Positions 24,995 through 48,852 of a stretch of 64,000 bases of DNA are shown one piece after another. The translations under genes were made by a program, and so were the position numbers. Each line of letters opens with the position of its first letter. Positions within the stretch are counted from its first letter, which is position 1. The stretch covers positions 96,001 through 160,000 of the forward strand of contig CAWDPO010000025.1 in the NCBI GenBank assembly GCA_963804165.1, given 5' to 3'. The DNA comes from an uncultured delta proteobacterium. GTDB lineage: Bacteria > Desulfobacterota > Binatia > UBA9968. The notes under the pieces are model-generated. The model saw only the letters and a program-made list of their open reading frames with translations. It was not told where the DNA came from and did not search any database.

Positions 24995-25023
24995 GCGTCA
25001 TTAAGATTGCCAATCGCTTGACT

Positions 25024-25066
25024 CAAAACGAGGTTCGGAGGTTGCCGGGCCTCGTTTTGTTGCTTT
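25024..25066 (+). terminator. Hairpin terminator after htrA
   Basis: CAAAACGAGGTTCGG-N6-CCGGGCCTCGTTTTG followed by a T-rich tail. Confidence 0.6.
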
Positions 25067-25113
25067 TGGGCCGCTTCTGCGCGAAAATCAATTTTACCTT
25101 TGGGGCGTTGGGT

Positions 25114-27396
25114 TTGATTAAGTCCAAACTGCGAATTTTTAGCCTATCACTCGTTGCACTCCTGGTCATTACCTCCAGCGGCCTCGTTTTCGGGGCCTGG
25201 TACCTAAAACGCCTGGAAGATACTGTCACGGAAAAATTTGAAGGGCGGAAATGGGTTTTCCCGTCGAAAATCTATTCGGACAGCTTTCTTCTTTACGTCG
25301 GCATTAGTATCCGTCTCGACGATCTGGCCGAAAAACTGCGTCGGCTTGGCTATTTCGAAAGCCTGGCGGAACCTAGGATAAAGGGAGAGTACCGCATCGC
25401 CAAATCGGACAACCTCATCGAAATCTATCTGCACGACTTCGATTTTCCGACCGAACGATTTAGCGGCGTTCCCGTCCGCGTTTCGTTCCAGGGTACCGTG
25501 GTTACACGGATCGAGAATATGGCGACCGGGAAAGAGATGTTTTCTCTGGAACTCGACCCCGAGCTTATGACGGGTCTTTATGAGAGGATTTGGCAGGAGC
25601 GAAAGGTCGTCAAATTGACCGACGTGCCTCCGCTTGTCGTCAGGTCGATTTTAGCGGTCGAAGACGAGCGCTTCTATAGCCATCACGGCATCGATCCAAT
25701 CGGTATCCTGCGGGCCATGTGGGTCAATCTGCGCAGCATGAGTTTTCAGCAGGGTGGCAGCACGCTCACGCAACAGTTGATGAAAAACTTTTTTCTCACC
25801 GACGAGCGAACGATTAGCCGCAAAATTCCGGAAGCCGTCATGGCCCTGATTGCGGAGCGCAAATACCCGAAGGAGACGATTCTCGAAAATTACCTCAATG
25901 AAATCTATTTAGGCCAACGCGGTTCGCAGGGAATTTTCGGCGTGTGGGAGGCGTCGCAGTTCTACTTTTCGAAGCCCCTTGCCGATTTAACGGTAGGAGA
26001 AACGGCGCTCTTGGCGGGACTGATCCGCGCGCCCAATCGAGTGTCGCCCTACCGCAGCGCCGAAGCAGCGACCCGTCGGCGCAACGTGGTGTTGGCCAAG
26101 CTACTCGATGACCGGATCATTACTCGCCGGCAATACGACGCGGCGCTGCGCGAAAAACTGCCGCAGCGAGCATTGGTGAAAGTTACCAATGACGCACCGT
26201 TCTACGTCGATTATCTGCGGCGCGAGCTCGAGGAAAATTATTCGAACGCGGAGCTTACCAAGGAAGGCTTGCGGATCTTTAGCGGTCTCGACTTGAACAT
26301 GCAAAGAATGGCGGAACGGGCGCTGGTCGAAGGTCTTAAGAAGCTCGAAGCGACCCACCCGGCCCTGCGGCGAAAGAGTGACGATAGCCTGGAAGGGGCG
26401 ATTGTCGTCTTGCGGCCTGGTACCGGCGAGATCAAGGCGATGGTGGGTGGCCGCAACTACTCGAAGTCGCAATTCAACCGGGTGTTTCAAGCCAAGCGCC
26501 AGCCCGGATCGGTTTTCAAACCCTTCGTGTACTTGGCCGCGCTGATGTACGGAGGCCAAAGCGGCGTCAGATACACACCCGAAACGATCATCAACGACAG
26601 TCAGTTCACGTGGAGCTACGATGGCAAGGATTGGCAGCCGAGCAATTACAATAACGAATATTTCGGCGCAGTGACACTGCGCCGCGCGTTGGAAAACTCG
26701 CTCAACTCGGCGACGGGGCGAGTGGCGCAGGATGTCGGCATTCGGCGGGTGCGCGAACTCGCGCACCGTATGGGCATCCAAAGCCCGCTTCCGGCTGTGC
26801 CTTCACTTGCTTTGGGCGCGGCCGAAGTCACGCCATTGGAAGTCGCGGTAGCTTTTTCGACCTTGGCGAACGGCGGCGTACGCCCGCGCCCGCTCGCCGT
26901 GAGGAACGTCGTGGATCAGAATTCGCACCTTTTGGAAAAGCGCGACGTTCGAAGCCAACAAGTCATTAGTCCGCAGATGGCCTACATGATGAACGAACTC
27001 CTCAAGGGTGTGTTGGACCGAGGCACCGCAGCGATGGCGCGACGATGGGGATTTACCCGCCCGGCAGCCGGGAAAACTGGCACTACAAACGATTACAAAG
27101 ACGCCTGGTTCGTGGGCTACACGCCGGATTTGCTCGCCGTGGTGTGGGTGGGATTCGACGGTCCGAGTAAACTGGGTCTATCAGGCGCGGAGGCAGCCCT
27201 GCCGATTTGGACTGAGTTTATGAAGAACGCGACCGTCAATATGCCGGTGACCGACTTTGTCGCGCCCGCGCCAATGCCGGACACCGATGATGGCGTTCCG
27301 GGCAAGTGCGGACCGACGTCGCCGGACGGCGGAGCGGGAATTAATCCCTGCCCACCGGCGGCGGTGCCAACTCGCGCGACTACTGATGCGCTTTAA
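25114..27396 (+). CDS. mrcB: Penicillin-binding protein 1B (TM, UB2H, GT51, transpeptidase)
   Basis: UB2H-like segment (PSKIYS...LRRLGY...GEY), EDERFYSHHG, GGSTLTQQL, SVFK, SLN, KTG; TTG start at 25114 chosen because it follows the terminator. Confidence 0.92.
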   Translation: MIKSKLRIFSLSLVALLVITSSGLVFGAWYLKRLEDTVTEKFEGRKWVFPSKIYSDSFLLYVGISIRLDDLAEKLRRLGYFESLAEPRIKGEYRIAKSDNLIEIYLHDFDFPTERFSGVPVRVSFQGTVVTRIENMATGKEMFSLELDPELMTGLYERIWQERKVVKLTDVPPLVVRSILAVEDERFYSHHGIDPIGILRAMWVNLRSMSFQQGGSTLTQQLMKNFFLTDERTISRKIPEAVMALIAERKYPKETILENYLNEIYLGQRGSQGIFGVWEASQFYFSKPLADLTVGETALLAGLIRAPNRVSPYRSAEAATRRRNVVLAKLLDDRIITRRQYDAALREKLPQRALVKVTNDAPFYVDYLRRELEENYSNAELTKEGLRIFSGLDLNMQRMAERALVEGLKKLEATHPALRRKSDDSLEGAIVVLRPGTGEIKAMVGGRNYSKSQFNRVFQAKRQPGSVFKPFVYLAALMYGGQSGVRYTPETIINDSQFTWSYDGKDWQPSNYNNEYFGAVTLRRALENSLNSATGRVAQDVGIRRVRELAHRMGIQSPLPAVPSLALGAAEVTPLEVAVAFSTLANGGVRPRPLAVRNVVDQNSHLLEKRDVRSQQVISPQMAYMMNELLKGVLDRGTAAMARRWGFTRPAAGKTGTTNDYKDAWFVGYTPDLLAVVWVGFDGPSKLGLSGAEAALPIWTEFMKNATVNMPVTDFVAPAPMPDTDDGVPGKCGPTSPDGGAGINPCPPAAVPTRATTDAL

Positions 27397-38371: not shown

Positions 38372-38899
38372 TCAAACGAAGCCCAAAATTCCTGCGAGCG
38401 CACCCGCGGCGAGTAGCCACAGCGGGTTCCATGACGTGCGCAAAACCACGGCGACGGTGATGAGTGTGATCAGGTAGCTCCGCCAGTCGTGGTTCACCGT
38501 GCGCATCAGGATCGTTGCGCTTGCGAACATCAGCCCAATCGTAATCGGTGTCAGGCCGCGGCGGACAGCGCGGCTGATTGGGGCATTGGGATACCGCTCG
38601 TTGAAATGCCCGACAAGCAGCGTGAGAGTGGTGGCCGGCACCAGCAACGGAATCGTGGTCGCGGCGACGCCCTTCCATCCCGCCAGGTGCCAGCCCATAA
38701 GCGTGACGTACATGACGTTGGGACCGGGCGCGACCTGCGCCAAGGTGTAGATCTCGGCAAACTGCGCGCTCGTCAAGAGGTGGTGCACTTCCACCACATA
38801 GCGATGGATGTCCGGCAGGATCGTCGAGGGACCGCCGACGGCCACGAACCACAGAGCCAAAAAATGCAAAAACAGCGCGCTGAGATCGACACGGTCCAT
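38372..38899 (-). CDS. Short-chain chromate transporter, second subunit
   Basis: AVGG, LAQVAPGPN; ATG overlaps the upstream TGA (TGATG). Confidence 0.88.
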   Translation of the reverse strand: MDRVDLSALFLHFLALWFVAVGGPSTILPDIHRYVVEVHHLLTSAQFAEIYTLAQVAPGPNVMYVTLMGWHLAGWKGVAATTIPLLVPATTLTLLVGHFNERYPNAPISRAVRRGLTPITIGLMFASATILMRTVNHDWRSYLITLITVAVVLRTSWNPLWLLAAGALAGILGFV

Positions 38900-39453
38900 C
38901 ACTCCTGCTCTTTCCACGCCGCGAAGATAGCCCAGGGCGTTAAAGCCCCCATGACCCACAGTAGCGGCCAGCGCATGACGCCCACGCCGACAAAGGCCAG
39001 CATCGCAAACATCCACGCCTGCCAGCGCCGCGGCAACACCATCGCCAACTTGATCACGGTGGCGAGCAGTAACCCCGCCGCTACAATGGACATGCCGGCC
39101 AGCGCCTGCTGCACCTGTGGTACAGCGCCGTAGTGCTGATACAGCACGCCCATGCCGATGACCACCAGACATGGCCAGCCCAAGAAGCCGGCGACGGCCG
39201 CTAGCGCGCCCGTCCAGCCGGCGAAACGATAGCCAACCATCACGGTTAGATTGAGCACGTTGGGCCCGGGCAGGAGCTGTCCGAGCGTTAACACTTCGAC
39301 AAATTCCCGCTCGGTGAGCCAGCGCTGTCGCTCGACCAGCTGACGCCGTGCCCAAAAAATCGCGCCGCCGAAACTTGACAAGCTAACCCGTGAAAAAGTG
39401 AGGAATAGATCAAGCGGGCTTACCTGCGGCTTATGTGATTCTGTTTGCTCCAT
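38899..39453 (-). CDS. Short-chain chromate transporter, first subunit
   Basis: SSFGG, LVERQRWL, GQLLPGPN; ATG at 39453 inferred. Confidence 0.88.
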   Translation of the reverse strand: MEQTESHKPQVSPLDLFLTFSRVSLSSFGGAIFWARRQLVERQRWLTEREFVEVLTLGQLLPGPNVLNLTVMVGYRFAGWTGALAAVAGFLGWPCLVVIGMGVLYQHYGAVPQVQQALAGMSIVAAGLLLATVIKLAMVLPRRWQAWMFAMLAFVGVGVMRWPLLWVMGALTPWAIFAAWKEQE

Positions 39454-40063
39454 GGTTTCTTGGCTTGATGCGTTGAACCGGTTGAACTGAAGACGTTTTT
39501 TCTTCTTTGAGTCTTTAGCAGGTTTCTGGAGAAAAGTTTCGGATTGCTTCGACACGGTCAGCATGGACGGAAAATCTAATTCATTTCAACCCCGTCTCCG
39601 TTTGCCTTGAGGCTTATGATGGATGTCGGCTTTGTTTTGGATCCGTTGGTTTTGCTTCGCCCAGTCTCTCGAGCAGCTTCGCCGTCGTCTCCACGTTACG
39701 GCAAAAGGGCGCCGCGACTTCGCTCGTCCCCGCACCCTAGGCTGTCCGTAACTCGAGGGGTTGCTTCCTTTCCCTTCCTTCTCTCCCAAGTAACGTTGGT
39801 TACACCACTGTATCCAAGCGTTGCGTCCGTAGCTTGCTACCGAGGAACGTAAATCCCGCGAATCGATAGGGCAATTCAGTCATTTATGTCGAACCCGAGA
39901 AAGAACTGCGAGATGGCATTGGCATTGCTGTCCTGGAAAGGTGTGACGCTAGCTTAGAAAAGAAAACAGCAAGGGGGCGGGTACTTAAAGCGGACGCCAA
40001 CGAGAAAGCGAAAATCTTACCTGGGTAGCCGCTTTCGCTAGCGCGAAGCGCAAGGAGGGTCAA

Positions 40064-41515
40064 ATGCGTGCCATCTTTATAAGTTATCGAAGGGAAGATG
40101 CTGAAGGTCAGGCGGGTCGCTTGTTCGATGATCTTGCCAGGCAGTTTGGTGAGGACTCCGTGTTCATGGACGTGGCAGGTATTGAGCCGGGGCGCGATTT
40201 TCGCCGCGTGATCGACGAGCATGTCGCCTCTTGCGGTGTCCTGTTGGCGATGATCGGCAAGAGCTGGATCGACGCCGCGGATGAGTCGGGCCGGCGCCGC
40301 CTCGAAGATCCTATGGATTTCGTTCGTCTCGAGACCGCCTCTGCATTGAGGCGGGACATTCCGGTCGTTCCTGTGCTCGTGCATGGCGCGCGCATGCCGC
40401 GGGCGGAGCAATTGCCCCCGGATCTGGCAGAGCTCGCTTATCGCAACGGCGTCGAGCTGACGCACGCGCGCTGGGACTCCGATGTCCAGGTGCTGGTCAA
40501 GGCGCTGAGTCCTCATGTGGAATCATCGCAAAAGAACGCGGACCGAGTGAACACCACCGCGTCGGCCGATGTGCCGAGGACAACGCGGATGACGAGTACC
40601 GGCCCGGATTCCGGTGTACCGCAAACTCCCGAGCATACGCTGCTCGCTAGTGCGCACTCGGCGAAAAAGTCTCTCACAATGATCGTAGCGGGATCACTGG
40701 CCGCGCTCGTCATAGCCGGCGGCGGATACGCGTGGTATCAAAAATCTTCCTTGCGGGCCGAGATGGTGCGGCAAGCGGCTTTACTGGAGGAGGCAAAAAA
40801 GAAGGCTGCTGCCGAGGAGCTTGAAGCCAAGAAACGCGCGGAAGAGAAAGCTACAGCGGACGCCCTTGAAGCTAAAAAACAGGCCGCGGAGCAAACTATC
40901 GCGGCGGAGACCGAAGCCAAAAGACGATCGCAGGAGAAAGCGCTTGCGCAAGAACTTGAAACGAAGAGGCAAGCCCAGGAGAAGGCTTATGCCCATGAGC
41001 TCGAAGCCAAGAGACGAGCACAGGAAATAGCTGACGCTGAAGAACGTGAAAGAACAAGACTTGCGCGCGAGAAAGCTGAAGCCGACAGATTGGCCCAAAT
41101 AGCTAACACCAAGAAACGTGACGTCGAGAGACGCGATCAGGAAATCGCTGTCGCAGAGGAACGTGAAAGGATGAGACAGACAGCGCTCGCCGAGGAACGT
41201 GAAAAGATGAGACTGGCGCAGGAAAGGGCTGCCGCGGCACAGCGCGCGCGCTGGTCGTCCTATAATTTTCCACCACCGAACGGTGGGCTGCTGGTCTACA
41301 CGATCAGGTCCGATGGCAATCCGGTCTGCGCGTCCTACGACGGCGGCAGTTGCTTGTGGGGACACACTTACGATCAAATCGATTTCAAGAGACTCCGGCC
41401 ACTAGCCTGCGGTGAAGAGCATCGCGCAAAATGGGGTCTTACCGGCTACGAAAACCTCAAGCACTGGTGCAATTTGGCGAGAAGAATCAGCGCTGATCGG
41501 AGATATCTGAGATAA
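40064..41515 (+). CDS. TIR domain + single TM + helical stalk + C-terminal 4-Cys domain (receptor-like protein)
   Basis: IFISYRRED, VFMDV, IGKSW, DFVRLE, VVPVL; TM IVAGSLAALVIAGGGYAWY; E/K/A/R repeats; CASYDGGSC...LACG..H...WG.TGY....HWC; AAGGAGG RBS. Confidence 0.88.
   Translation: MRAIFISYRREDAEGQAGRLFDDLARQFGEDSVFMDVAGIEPGRDFRRVIDEHVASCGVLLAMIGKSWIDAADESGRRRLEDPMDFVRLETASALRRDIPVVPVLVHGARMPRAEQLPPDLAELAYRNGVELTHARWDSDVQVLVKALSPHVESSQKNADRVNTTASADVPRTTRMTSTGPDSGVPQTPEHTLLASAHSAKKSLTMIVAGSLAALVIAGGGYAWYQKSSLRAEMVRQAALLEEAKKKAAAEELEAKKRAEEKATADALEAKKQAAEQTIAAETEAKRRSQEKALAQELETKRQAQEKAYAHELEAKRRAQEIADAEERERTRLAREKAEADRLAQIANTKKRDVERRDQEIAVAEERERMRQTALAEEREKMRLAQERAAAAQRARWSSYNFPPPNGGLLVYTIRSDGNPVCASYDGGSCLWGHTYDQIDFKRLRPLACGEEHRAKWGLTGYENLKHWCNLARRISADRRYLR
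40811..41035 (+). repeat. Five 45-bp (15-aa) coding tandem repeats in the TIR protein stalk
   Basis: AEELEAKKRAEEKAT / ADALEAKKQAAEQTI / AAETEAKRRSQEKAL / AQELETKRQAQEKAY / AHELEAKRRAQEIAD. Confidence 0.85.
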
Positions 41516-45157: not shown

Positions 45158-45796
45158 CTATTTGTCTTGCAAGACCAGTTCGTTTGAAACCTCAGAATCA
45201 GAAAGCCATTCGATCCGCACGGTAGTTATCCCCCGTCCCACCATGTCTAGTGCCCGTGCCGCAGATCGGGAGACGTCGATGATGCGACCTTTGCCAAACG
45301 GGCCGCGATCATTAATCCGCACGTCAACTGATTTCCCATTGGCTAGATTGGTGACTTTCACTCGACTGCCCCAGGGAAGAGTTCGATGAGCCGCCGTGAA
45401 TTTCTCCTGGTTAAAAACTTCTCCGCTCGCGGTGCGCTTGCCGTGAAATTTTGGTCCGTACCACGAGGCCAGACCCGTCTCCATCATCGTTGGTTGCGCA
45501 GGTGCGGGAATGCCTACAATTGGCGGGGACTGTTCGGTTTGCGGTGGGGAAGGGACGTCGGCTACTGGCGGAATCTCATGCGGAGAGATATGCGTCGGCG
45601 GCTCGTCGGAAGAATTGTCCGTCTGAGACTCCGAAGGTGAGACTCCTCTCGTCGACACGGCGCGGTTAGGCGCATCTGAGATGACGGCACAACCTTGAGA
45701 AGAGATTAGCGCCGCCATCAGTACCAAGGCGTTTACCCGCAACTCGAAGGCCACTACTTGGGGAGGCGAAATTGATCCGCGAAATAAATATTGCAT
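45158..45796 (-). CDS. rlpA: RlpA-family lytic transglycosylase lipoprotein (DPBB domain, no SPOR domain)
   Basis: Lipobox-like SQGC; [34 protein letters not shown]. Confidence 0.88.
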
Positions 45797-46368: not shown

Positions 46369-48852
46369 TTATTTTTCCTGCAGATACCGCTCACGTTCCA
46401 GCTGTTCTCGCTCGCGCTGCTCACGTTTCTGCCGCAATAGCTCAAAGAGGCGTTCCTTCTCGCGTTGCCTTTCCAGCCTTCTCTGCTCTTCCGCATCTTG
46501 GAATCGATCTCTCTCTCGTTGCAGTTGTTCTGGCCGCGGCGTTTCACGCCCTAGGTCACGGCTTGGCGGCGGCGGGACGGGGACGGATCTGGCCCTTTCT
46601 CCGAGCCACCAGTCTCTTAGCGTGTCCAAGAATGGTTCCAAGAAGGAGTCGCGTGGTCTTGAATACGGGAATTGAGCGCCGGTGTCGATTAGTCGCGCGT
46701 CAAGAATATGCTGAAAAAAATCTCCGACCAACAAGACGGCGTTGTGCCCGCCCTCGCCCCAATAATTGCTGCGCATAGTGACCCGCTGGTCATTGAAGCC
46801 GACCCACGCCCCGGCGACGAGTTGCGGGTGCATCAAGATAAACCAGCCGTCGGTATTTTTTTGGGTGGTGCCGGTCTTCCCCGCGACATCGGCGCGCACG
46901 CCGAATCGAGTTCTTATTACCTGCCCGGTGCCTTTATCGATTGCGTCGCGCATCATGTTGATCAAATTTTCCACCGTTTGGTCGGATAGGACGCGCGTGC
47001 TCTCGTTCTCGAATCTGGCAAGCACGTTGCCATTCTTGTCGGTGATGCGGGTGATAAATATCGGCTGGCGGTATGCCCCCCGGGCCGCGAGGGTGCTGTA
47101 AGCGGCGACCATTTCGAATGGTGTGACCGGACTGGTGCCGAGCGCCAAGGACGGCACTTCTTCGAGCCTGCTTTGATTGATTCCCATTCGCCGCGCAAGT
47201 TCCGCAGTTCTTCTCGGACCGATTTCCTGCATGACCTGGGCGGTGATGGTGTTTTTCGAATAGATAAGGCCGTCGCGTGCTGTCATCGATTCACCAGTCG
47301 GCTCCGATAGATCGGCGGGGCGCCATACGCTGCCGTCTGGCAAGGGAATTTCGACTGGGCGGTCGATAAAACGTTTCTCCGGTGACATGCCGTGCTCGAG
47401 CGCGGCGCCGTAAACAAAGGGTTTAAACGTCGAACCGGGCTGGCGCCGCGCTTGCGCTACGTGATCGAATTGGTCGGTATTGAAGTCACGGCTGCCGACC
47501 CACGCTTTTACGTGACCGGTGGCCGGATCGATGGCGACGAAGCCCGCCTGCAAGCGTGTTTTGTCGGCGCGGAGCTTAGCGATGAATTTGCGATCGTTTT
47601 TCAACTGCGCGAGTGCGGCTTCCGGCGTCGTGCCGGCATCGATCGCGCTACGGTAAGCCGCGGATTCTCGAATGAACACGTCGATCAGGCCGGCCTTGGT
47701 TTTCCAAAAATATCCGAAAGGCTGGATACGCCGTCGCATGCCGACGTACGTATTCACGCTCGACGACATGAGTCCCGCGGAGCTCATTCCCCACTCTACG
47801 TCGGCGACCGTCTGCAGGGCCGTTATTTGAAGAGTTACGGCTTGATTGGCAAGCGCCTGCAAACGCGAGTCGATGGTGGTGTGCACGACCAATCCGTCGG
47901 AATAAATATCGCGGTCGTTGCGGTCCGCCCAATCGATCAGCCATTTACGAATCTGCACGGCAAGATGAGGCGCGGGGCCGACTGCTTCGGGCTGGCGTTC
48001 GAAATTCAGCGGTATCGGCCGGCCTTTTAACCTATCGAAATCGGCTTGGCTCAAGGCGCCGCGCTTGAACATTTGCGCCAGCACCACGTTGCGGCGCGCC
48101 AGCGCGCGCTCGGGGTTGAGCACCGGGTTGTAGTAGCTCGTGCCTTTTAACATGGCGATCAAGGTGGCGCTTTCAATGACATTGAGTTTTTGCGCGGGCT
48201 TGTCGAAGTAAGTGCGCGCAGCCATTTCGATACCGAACGCGTTGTATAAAAAAGGAATCGTATTGAGATAGGTTTCGAGGATTTCTTTTTTCGTGTAGGC
48301 GTATTCGATCTTGATAGCGGTAATCATCTCCTTAATCTTTCGCGTGATCGTCCGCTGTCGGCCGATTTCCGGATAGAGGTTGCGCGCGAGTTGCTGGGTT
48401 AGCGTGGAACCGCCCTCCGCATCTCCGCCGAAGGCACGCAGGAGTCCGGTCGCGGTGCGCACGAAATCGACACCGACGTGTTGGTAAAATCGGTGGTCTT
48501 CCGTGGCGATCAAGGCAGCGATCACGTGCGGCGAGATTTGATTTAAGCGCACCCACTCGCGGTTCATCGGCTTGAGAGTGGCGAGACGCCTGCCATCGGA
48601 TGACATCAGCACGGCGGGCTGGTCGATTCTGGCTTTTCGTATATCGGAAATACTCGGCGTGAACGGCAGCAAAATCAGGGCGTACCCGCACAACGCCGCC
48701 AGTCCAAGCGCGCCCAAAACGGCAAAGCCTTTGGCGCCGGAAATAATCTTGGCGCGCATACTCAGGGCAGGATTGATTGTAGCCCTGAAGTAGCCGGCGA
48801 ACCGCCGGTACAAGCGTCTCAATCGTGCGGCAGGCCGTAACTTCTCAGCCAC
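46369..48852 (-). CDS. Class A penicillin-binding protein (PBP1A family) with a charged C-terminal tail
   Basis: EDHRFYQH, GGSTLTQQLARNL, RKIKE, STFK, SKN, KTGT. Confidence 0.92.
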   Translation of the reverse strand: MAEKLRPAARLRRLYRRFAGYFRATINPALSMRAKIISGAKGFAVLGALGLAALCGYALILLPFTPSISDIRKARIDQPAVLMSSDGRRLATLKPMNREWVRLNQISPHVIAALIATEDHRFYQHVGVDFVRTATGLLRAFGGDAEGGSTLTQQLARNLYPEIGRQRTITRKIKEMITAIKIEYAYTKKEILETYLNTIPFLYNAFGIEMAARTYFDKPAQKLNVIESATLIAMLKGTSYYNPVLNPERALARRNVVLAQMFKRGALSQADFDRLKGRPIPLNFERQPEAVGPAPHLAVQIRKWLIDWADRNDRDIYSDGLVVHTTIDSRLQALANQAVTLQITALQTVADVEWGMSSAGLMSSSVNTYVGMRRRIQPFGYFWKTKAGLIDVFIRESAAYRSAIDAGTTPEAALAQLKNDRKFIAKLRADKTRLQAGFVAIDPATGHVKAWVGSRDFNTDQFDHVAQARRQPGSTFKPFVYGAALEHGMSPEKRFIDRPVEIPLPDGSVWRPADLSEPTGESMTARDGLIYSKNTITAQVMQEIGPRRTAELARRMGINQSRLEEVPSLALGTSPVTPFEMVAAYSTLAARGAYRQPIFITRITDKNGNVLARFENESTRVLSDQTVENLINMMRDAIDKGTGQVIRTRFGVRADVAGKTGTTQKNTDGWFILMHPQLVAGAWVGFNDQRVTMRSNYWGEGGHNAVLLVGDFFQHILDARLIDTGAQFPYSRPRDSFLEPFLDTLRDWWLGERARSVPVPPPPSRDLGRETPRPEQLQRERDRFQDAEEQRRLERQREKERLFELLRQKREQREREQLERERYLQEK

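Follow-up and report, generated by a model that had tools for sequence, protein, structure and literature searches.

TIR domains acting as nicotinamide adenine dinucleotide (NAD+) hydrolases (NADases), SARM1-like TIR domains of bacteria and pairs of a TIR gene with a SLATT gene are already known. SARM1 and the bacterial TIR proteins are active only when they are assembled, and the bacterial systems Thoeris, SpbK, SPARTA and TIR-STING all respond, to our knowledge, to cues inside the cell. The gene described here lies on a stretch of 64,000 nucleotides from an uncultured delta proteobacterium (Desulfobacterota, Binatia, UBA9968; assembly GCA_963804165.1, contig CAWDPO010000025.1, positions 96,001 to 160,000 of the forward strand), hereafter called the window. 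Its product consists of a TIR domain, a disordered segment, a single transmembrane (TM) helix, a helix of about 170 residues rich in Ala, Glu, Arg and Lys, and a domain with four cysteines. We favour, at a probability of about 0.55, the reading that this predicted protein is a single-pass TM receptor, of type II because the TIR domain is N-terminal, whose ectodomain would control a cytoplasmic NADase or cyclic ADP-ribose (cADPR) synthase.

At the N-terminal end the closest solved structure, by sequence and by fold, is that of SARM1/TIR-1, an animal NAD+ hydrolase and ADP-ribosyl cyclase. The accessible part of one report places the TIR domain of SARM1 within a bacterial clade (PMC13142454), and canonical cADPR is given as the product of SARM1-type TIRs in the available text of another (10.64898/2025.12.03.692087). 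In that text, TIR and SLATT pairs constitute type VII Thoeris, with the effector ThsH and canonical cADPR as the signal, and in the Thoeris types the production of signalling nucleotides by the TIR protein depended on phage infection. At the C-terminal end the nearest known protein is poxvirus H2, a subunit of the entry-fusion complex (PF03356; PDB 8ini, 9l7w, 9wlp, 9uzo) and a type II protein with a TM segment, a long helix (residues 51-90) and an ectodomain (95-189). The H2 disulfides are C102-C148 and C162-C182; the latter frames the A28-binding loop LGYSG and ends in W181-C182, as far as the accessible part of the source goes (10.1101/2023.08.28.555102).

The SARM1-like TIR domain, the stalk and the H2-like domain

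Pfam assigned residues 4-138 to TIR_2 (PF13676) with an E-value of 9.2e-11 and 42.7 bits against a cut-off of 28. Neither a TM segment nor a signal peptide was found ahead of the domain; the first-pass annotation, made from the sequence alone, had likewise seen no signal peptide. At E<=1, 18 PDB sequences were matched, and all of them are SARM1 or TIR-1, the orthologue in worm (best E 4.3e-6). The motif FISYRR pairs with the identical motif of SARM1, Y8-R9-R10 being aligned to Y568-R570, and D85-F-V-R-L-E90 pairs with D-W-V-H-K-E, so that F86 corresponds to W638, E90 to E642 and, further on, H134 to H685 (SARM1 numbering counted from the match of 564-700 on the 724-residue chain 7knq_A). E642 of SARM1 was reportedly established as the catalytic residue by Essuman in 2017, and PDB titles such as 'Sarm1 E642A' were found among the TIR fold matches. 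The sequence DFVRLE (85-90), in which the first-pass annotation had recognised a glutamate at the catalytic position, was invariant in 61 of 61 orthologues, and E90 also in all 56 wider family members examined. Over these 61 orthologues the TIR domain has a mean pairwise identity of 85% with zero indels.

The fold led to the same assignment. In the full-length AlphaFold2 model (mean predicted local distance difference test, pLDDT, of 76.6), the TIR domain superposed on that of SARM1 (Foldseek E 2.6e-8, TMt 0.79-0.85, root-mean-square deviation (rmsd) of 2.2-3.6 Å over about 146 columns at about 24% identity), a match ranking above SPARTA TIR-APAZ. By alignment and model, the TIR domain is thus predicted to be of the enzymatic SARM1 type and not of the scaffold type of Toll-like receptors. 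In SARM1 the regulation comes from cytoplasmic ARM and SAM domains within an octamer, whereas in the window protein the TIR stands at the N-terminus and is connected to a TM helix and a domain outside the cytoplasm.

The C-terminal domain gave no direct match in Pfam or NCBIfam. A profile search against the PDB sequences returned carbonic anhydrase as its sole match (E 1.3, chance), and the look-up in the ESM Atlas was uninformative (best score 0.77). To recognise the relationship to H2, a comparison of folds was required. Folded alone, the domain was modelled with a mean pLDDT of 92.3. An independent all-against-all structural alignment found the H2 chains 8ini_B (Z 8.1), 9l7w_A (Z 7.3) and 9uzo_D (Z 6.2), with an rmsd of 2.8 Å over 79 aligned residues for the first two, and the next unrelated structure reached Z 3.3. 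The H2 ectodomain, whose fold the model matches, is a beta-sheet with cladding helices, and in a Foldseek search of the PDB the top eight rows were all vaccinia or mpox H2 (probability 0.97-1.0). Among viral models (BFVD), Catovirus and Tupanvirus proteins came first (E 7.8e-6 to 5e-3, 17-34% identity), followed by the poxvirus H2 orthologues. Across the 61 orthologues the mean pairwise identity of the domain is 73%, and C422, C430, C449 and C469 as well as W397, W432, H453, Y462, H467 and W468 are invariant. These data indicate that the C-terminal domain is conserved and folded, with a predicted poxvirus-H2-like fold; the earlier proposal of a conserved, folded four-cysteine domain held in the alignments of orthologues and in the model of the domain.

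The likeness to H2 includes the type II order of TM segment, long helix and ectodomain. Furthermore, C449-x19-C469 has the spacing of C162-C182 in H2, frames W-G-x-T-G-Y and ends in H-W-C, just as the H2 pair, in the available description, brackets a G-Y loop that is conserved and has W-C at its end (10.1101/2023.08.28.555102). Given the wide family of H2-like domains, the G-Y loop is a candidate for an ancient binding surface. The first cysteine pair of the window protein is local (C422-x7-C430), whereas the corresponding spacing in H2 is x45 (C102-C148). The window protein also differs from H2 in having neither an A28-like partner nor a viral context, and in being fused to a TIR domain.

The last 91 residues, used as the query of an exhaustive phmmer search, yielded 424 representative proteins at E<=1e-3, 155 of them at E<=1e-10. 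Of the 150 matches listed, 13 carry a TIR of the window type and 82 contain at least two copies of the domain. A hydrophobic N-terminal stretch was detected heuristically in 77 of the 137 listed matches that have no window-type TIR, and an N-terminus clearly like a signal peptide stands directly before the domain in P0158, P0152, P0156 and P0162. Pfam was run on 85 of the 150 listed relatives, those of 240-1110 aa. The H2 profile PF03356 (Pox_LP_H2, 'Viral late protein H2') matched 23 of these at E<=1e-3 (best 3.9e-11), with P0128 (32.2 bits), P0163 (31.5) and P0167 (29.9) above its cut-off of 27.6 bits; P0158, a close relative of the window's domain, was reached at E 0.039. The partner domains found in the scanned relatives (trypsin-like proteases, F5/8 type C, CBM_5_12, B_lectin, GH85, GDPD, abhydrolase and a CsgG/FlgO-type lipoprotein) are of extracellular kinds. 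The domain also occurs in Aphanomyces stellatus, in three copies in P0176 and two in P0217, and related proteins were found in A. euteiches and in A. astaci ('Secreted protein'); this confirms the resemblance, proposed in the first-pass annotation, to a repeat from secreted proteins of Saprolegnia or Aphanomyces. Four or five H2-like repeats in tandem are present in the large secreted proteins P0125, P0130, P0144 and P0166, of which P0130 also has a CBM_5_12 domain; the N-terminal half of P0125 resembles, by eye, what we take to be a region of the beta-pore-forming-toxin type.

The predicted topology follows from these comparisons. The domain is placed outside because the same domain directly follows signal-peptide-like N-termini in many other proteins, and because sister TIR-TM proteins carry PASTA, solute-binding, lectin or TonB_C domains at this position. 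It is strongly supported that the TIR domain lies in the cytoplasm, where NAD+ is, that one TM helix crosses the membrane, and that the long charged helix and the H2-like domain, of a disulfide type, lie in the periplasm. Proteins of the Omp85 family and DsbA-like proteins are encoded in the source genome (assembly of 7.5 Mb, 81% complete), in keeping with a diderm cell whose periplasm is oxidising. The first-pass annotation had spoken of a Toll-like-receptor topology, and the inside TIR, the TM helix and the outside domain bear this out, while the order along the chain is reversed. Toll-like and IL-1 receptors likewise span the membrane once, with the TIR in the cytoplasm and a recognition domain outside the cell, but they have the type I order and their TIR is an adaptor-recruiting scaffold, whereas that of the window protein is predicted to be enzymatic. 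Leucine-rich repeat or immunoglobulin domains were not found in the window protein, which thus differs from the Toll-like receptor family (leucine-rich repeat ectodomain, TM helix, C-terminal TIR); the two are analogous, not orthologous.

Between the globular ends the chain is far less constrained. The juxtamembrane segment has a pLDDT below 50 across most of residues 161-210, a mean pairwise identity of 27% and a length of 18-62 aa among the 61 orthologues. The best 19-residue hydropathy window (Kyte-Doolittle value 1.79) starts at residue 203, directly after SAKKS, in accordance with the single TM helix preceded by KK that had been noted earlier; the identity of this helix is 43%, and all 112 proteins that combine TIR and H2-like domains have a TM helix at the corresponding position. 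AlphaFold2 then predicts one unbroken helix from residue 211 to 395, the long helix of Glu, Lys, Ala and Arg seen at first pass. Residues 226-395 contain 24.7% Ala, 46.5% Asp, Glu, Lys or Arg and 13.5% large hydrophobics, with zero Pro. A canonical coiled coil was rejected as the simplest reading of this stalk, given the few large hydrophobics and the lack of an enriched heptad register, since positions a and d are hydrophobic in at most 21% of cases in every one; we take it to resemble TolA domain II or a single helix of the ER/K type more closely. At the protein level the stalk has a periodicity of 15 residues (identity 0.34 at lag 15; E-L-E-A-K-R/K-R-A-Q-E-K-A...). No DNA tandem repeat was detected in the stalk, apart from two short chance rows, and the repeat is therefore old and diverged. 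Identity in the stalk is 40% and its length 52-201 residues. Conservation is high at both globular ends of the protein, while the tether is free in length and composition.

Swappable ectodomains and SLATT neighbours in the TIR family

A word-index search gave 2753 relatives among 8000 scored candidates, and soil and metagenome assemblies were the main source of the full-length orthologues, which are 45-84% identical. Scanning a single genome for each species gave 415 relatives; the counts that follow cover 80 fetched loci together with the window (81 sources), with Acidobacteriota, Burkholderiales, Verrucomicrobia, Gemmatimonadota, Rokubacteria and others represented. We define the family by a SARM1-like TIR, a TM helix 30-50 residues beyond it and a variable C-terminal extracytoplasmic domain. 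The window protein has all of these features, namely the conserved TIR, one TM helix and a C-terminal non-cytoplasmic domain. The 81 sources contain 83 TIR open reading frames (ORFs) of the window type; a hydrophobic helix follows the TIR in 66 of them, and the H2-like domain is present in nine (eight loci and the window).

Pfam was run on 56 of the 83 ORFs, those of about 325 aa or more, and TIR_2 was matched in all 56. The ectodomains included PASTA in 12 cases, CzcE in 11 and BTRD1 in two, with one case each of DUF2911, PBP_like_2/SBP_bac_1, ricin-type and tachylectin lectins, TonB_C, VHL-beta and WD40-like propellers. The order TIR-TM-PASTA was checked in five proteins. Protein P0082 (647 aa) has the TIR, TM and charged helix of the window protein followed by a DctP/TRAP solute-binding domain. 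Judged from these architectures, the ectodomains are swappable within the family. PASTA Ser/Thr kinases of the PknB/PrkC type and other one-component TM sensors resemble these proteins in combining a cytoplasmic enzyme, one TM helix and extracytoplasmic ligand-binding repeats; the output domain of the family is, however, a TIR and not a kinase, and the window protein carries an H2-like domain instead of PASTA. Pfam also finds TIR domains within the scanned set of 85 H2-like relatives, to which P0126 (282 aa) belongs. This protein has a clearly different TIR (MSDIFISYARAD...) fused to the H2-like domain, which suggests an independent fusion, so that the combination may have arisen more than once. 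As a separate observation, P0084 (509 aa) shares the TIR, TM and charged helix of the window protein and has another small end domain after KLDADR repeats.

The distribution is patchy at close range. Within the genus, at least one family TIR was present in 19 of 24 other genomes and the H2-like domain in one of the 24, and none of 16 genomes from two other families of the order had a family TIR or an H2-like domain. The source genome itself has four further family TIR genes: one TIR-TM-charged helix gene, a tandem pair and one interrupted by TAG. The tandem paralogues (contig 2, 206186-207609; L083/L084) encode TIR-TM proteins of 252 and 324 aa that share 51-52% identity with the window TIR. 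Their short C-terminal parts outside the cytoplasm differ from each other, which suggests a local duplication with diversification of the ectodomain. The interrupted gene (contig 18, 1168-1633; L085/L086) has the family TIR behind hydrophobic N-terminal segments and contains an in-frame TAG; it may be a pseudogene or reflect faulty assembly close to the contig end.

All-against-all clustering of 2996 ORFs from the 80 loci and the window identified a sole recurrent neighbour family, a SLATT/DUF4231 gene with two TM helices, at 11 of the 81 loci (E down to 5e-27). For no neighbour family did the count exceed 11 sources; the larger clusters consisted only of the TIR gene and its antisense shadow ORFs. 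The SLATT genes lie within about 1.1 kb of the family TIR gene in mixed orientations. They adjoin TIR-TM-ectodomain proteins at three loci (DUF2911 at L011, BTRD1 at L007, TonB_C at L069) and short TM-less TIRs at L074 and L078; the SLATT-linked short TM-less members also include that of L079. The presence of SLATT genes recalls Thoeris, in particular type VII, and in the accessible part of its description the membrane-spanning receptor architecture goes unmentioned (10.64898/2025.12.03.692087). In contrast to Thoeris, neither ThsA nor a SLATT gene of the ThsH kind adjoins the window gene, and no ThsA-like or other effector gene was found within about 15 kb of it. The first-pass annotation, which had described a stand-alone gene with no effector adjacent, is thus right for this locus; the family is not always stand-alone, because SLATT adjoins it in the 11 loci. 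An orphan SLATT/DUF4231 gene of 146 aa was observed elsewhere in the source genome (contig 46, 372424-372828; L087, ORF 1489-1929). It is 39% identical to the SLATT genes beside family TIRs elsewhere and has no TIR nearby. One flank is a gene for an NMT1-like solute-binding protein, and the other, by eye, an ORF that we take to be amidohydrolase-like.

Proposed sensing across the membrane and rival explanations

If the protein is a receptor, its H2-like domain would recognise a conserved ligand outside the cytoplasm, probably a glycan or an envelope or cell-surface component. This is suggested by the relatives of the domain, which travel with lectins, carbohydrate-binding modules, glycosidases and proteases, and by its conserved face, the aromatic-rich G-x-TGY...HWC loop, which is the counterpart of the partner-binding LGYSG loop of H2. 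Binding of the ligand, or its loss, would alter the self-association of the receptor, and the TIR domains would then assemble active sites. The prediction of a two-copy complex of residues 200-483 scored 0.00 in both runs and counts neither for nor against self-association. The output may be NAD+ depletion leading to growth arrest, or else a cADPR-type nucleotide that would open a SLATT pore of two TM helices; the latter is considered because SLATT adjoins family members and the source genome has one unlinked SLATT gene.

Several observations weigh against this reading. The link to PF03356 is transitive plus structural, because the window's own domain is below Pfam detection (unmatched even at E 10) and it is its phmmer relatives that match; the Foldseek E-values to H2 are weak (0.04-0.16), and a Z of 8.1 is at the edge of the tool's secure range. 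No SLATT or other effector gene lies beside any of the nine loci of the H2-like type, and the window gene is surrounded by housekeeping genes and not in a defence island. None of 50,697 phage records was matched, and five of 72,556 plasmid records match in the TIR part only. A highly conserved ectodomain is moreover atypical of a sensor that detects rapidly evolving components of phages. Finally, the linker from TM helix to H2-like domain ranges from 8 to 201 residues (median 137) in the 112 proteins that have both TIR and H2-like domains, with 10 linkers shorter than 25 residues and 29 that are Pro-rich, and such variability fits a passive tether equally to a signal-transmitting rod. At 0.15 nm per residue the stalk of the window protein would hold the domain about 25 nm off the membrane, in agreement with the 20-25 nm estimated at first pass; the accompanying idea that its length serves to reach the peptidoglycan or outer membrane found no support as a length-critical ruler, and given the range of linkers a fixed reach across the periplasm is not required in the family.

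The main rival is a passive tether with cytoplasmic sensing: the TIR would answer an intracellular cue, such as phage infection in the manner of ThsB, and the TM helix, stalk and H2-like domain would merely restrain it or localise it to envelope, septum or peptidoglycan. The extreme variability of the tether in length and composition would suit this, as would the SLATT-linked members L074, L078 and L079, which are short and without a TM helix, and the phage-dependent nucleotide production of the Thoeris TIRs. There is also a precedent, since the amoeba TIR protein TirC is, in the available text of its description, kept inactive by a mere TM tether, and removal of the TM helix activates its NADase (PMC13142454); a membrane anchor alone is for this reason no proof of TM sensing. 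However, a tether leaves unexplained both the 73% conservation of the ectodomain and the presence of ligand-binding modules (PASTA, solute-binding, lectins, CzcE) at its position in the family. We regard this explanation as unlikely.

It is still less probable that the protein is an ordinary stand-alone abortive-infection TIR, a NADase like ThsB or SpbK that is bound to the membrane and whose C-terminal domain directly recognises a phage component at the envelope. The first 60 residues do give weak matches to such proteins, to PADLOC ThsB1 (E 1.2e-6, residues 2-61 only) and to NCBIfam ThcB4 (E 3.7e-10), and the distribution is accessory and patchy, with several paralogues per genome. These scores are nevertheless far below the family cut-offs (39.2 bits against 220 for ThcB4), the context is not that of a defence island, and the conservation of the ectodomain across phyla speaks against arms-race recognition of phage proteins; the lack of a homologue in the phage records also counts against this possibility, though without bearing on targets.

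An envelope protein of the TolA/TonB kind, bridging the inner membrane to the peptidoglycan or outer membrane with the TIR as a non-enzymatic scaffold, is very improbable: the N-terminal anchor, the long Ala/Glu/Lys-rich helix or Pro-rich spacer of variable length and the small C-terminal binding domain do resemble TolA and TonB, one family member ends in TonB_C and weak composition-driven matches to GltJ-like low-complexity regions were obtained, but the SARM1 catalytic-site residues are invariant while TolA and TonB have no cytoplasmic enzyme domain, the spread of the H2-like domain in the genus is too patchy for an envelope housekeeping part, and neither Tol/Ton partner genes nor the ExbBD/TolQR motors are adjacent to the window gene.

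If the receptor reading holds, the family would be the first sign of bacteria linking the perception of outside cues to signals derived from NAD+, with the functional logic of animal Toll-like receptors built with an enzymatic TIR of the SARM1 type; the PASTA, lectin and solute-binding versions would then be testable candidates with guessable ligands. Few cellular relatives of the parts of the poxvirus entry-fusion complex are known to us so far, and the bacterial, oomycete and giant-virus family of the H2 ectodomain would provide a cellular domain family for comparison with that complex. A broader picture can be drawn only tentatively. Soil bacteria would possess type II receptors with SARM1-type TIRs and interchangeable ectodomains (H2-like, PASTA, lectins, solute-binding, CzcE, TonB_C) that respond to outside or envelope cues by cleaving NAD+ or by signalling through cADPR, SLATT pores being one of the effectors, and the ancestor of poxvirus H2 would be an old cellular module for binding outside the cytoplasm, which is still common among bacteria, oomycetes and giant viruses; in this full form we consider it possible but doubtful. 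A literature search, which covered few subscription journals and no supplements, returned no description of bacterial TIR-TM-ectodomain receptors or TIR-PASTA proteins, no PF03356 outside viruses and no bacterial or oomycete relatives of H2; Table S1 of 10.64898/2025.12.03.692087 may list the TIR cluster of the window.

The gene and its flanking DNA

The features of the gene are collected in Table 1. Its N-terminus, MRAIFISYRR, is the same start as in 15 of 17 aligned orthologues, the remaining two being shorter at this end.

Table 1. Features of the TIR-TM-stalk-H2-like gene, with coordinates in the window
Feature	Residues	Coordinates	Strand	Remarks
Whole gene, TIR-TM-stalk-H2-like protein	1-483	40064..41515 (including stop codon)	+	483 aa, ATG start
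SARM1-like TIR domain, cytoplasmic (predicted)	1-150	40064..40513	+	Pfam TIR_2; SARM1 best by sequence and fold
Glu90 codon, predicted catalytic glutamate	90	40331..40333	+	Aligned to SARM1 E642; invariant
Juxtamembrane segment, variable, probably disordered	151-202	40514..40669	+	Low pLDDT; ends in KK
Single TM helix	203-225	40670..40738	+	Hydropathy
Charged helical stalk, extracytoplasmic (predicted), ER/K or TolA-domain-II type	226-396	40739..41251	+	AlphaFold2, composition
H2-like four-Cys domain, extracytoplasmic (predicted)	397-483	41252..41512	+	Cys codons 41327, 41351, 41408, 41468

The gene forms a single-gene (monocistronic) unit, because the gene upstream of it is transcribed divergently and the one downstream convergently. 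A promoter scan found nothing and was uninformative. Recent horizontal acquisition, or a defence island, was rejected in view of the housekeeping neighbours and a GC content of 0.56-0.60, as in the flanks. The wider flanks carry genes for GST, SDR, MBL-fold, nitroreductase, penicillin-binding proteins, TsaD and KsgA, and an EamA transporter gene (-) lies directly downstream.

Upstream of the TIR gene and divergent from it are two chromate-transporter half genes (-). These overlapping ORFs of 327 and 221 aa at 38372-39564 (-) both match Chromate_transp (Pfam, E about 2e-34), and the arrangement looks like a split two-gene chromate transporter of the ChrA type. Two class A penicillin-binding proteins, with transglycosylase and transpeptidase domains, flank the region at 25018-27396 (+) and 46369-48852 (-). 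Between them, an ORF of 212 aa at 45158-45796 (-) presumably encodes an RlpA-type lipoprotein, as read by eye.

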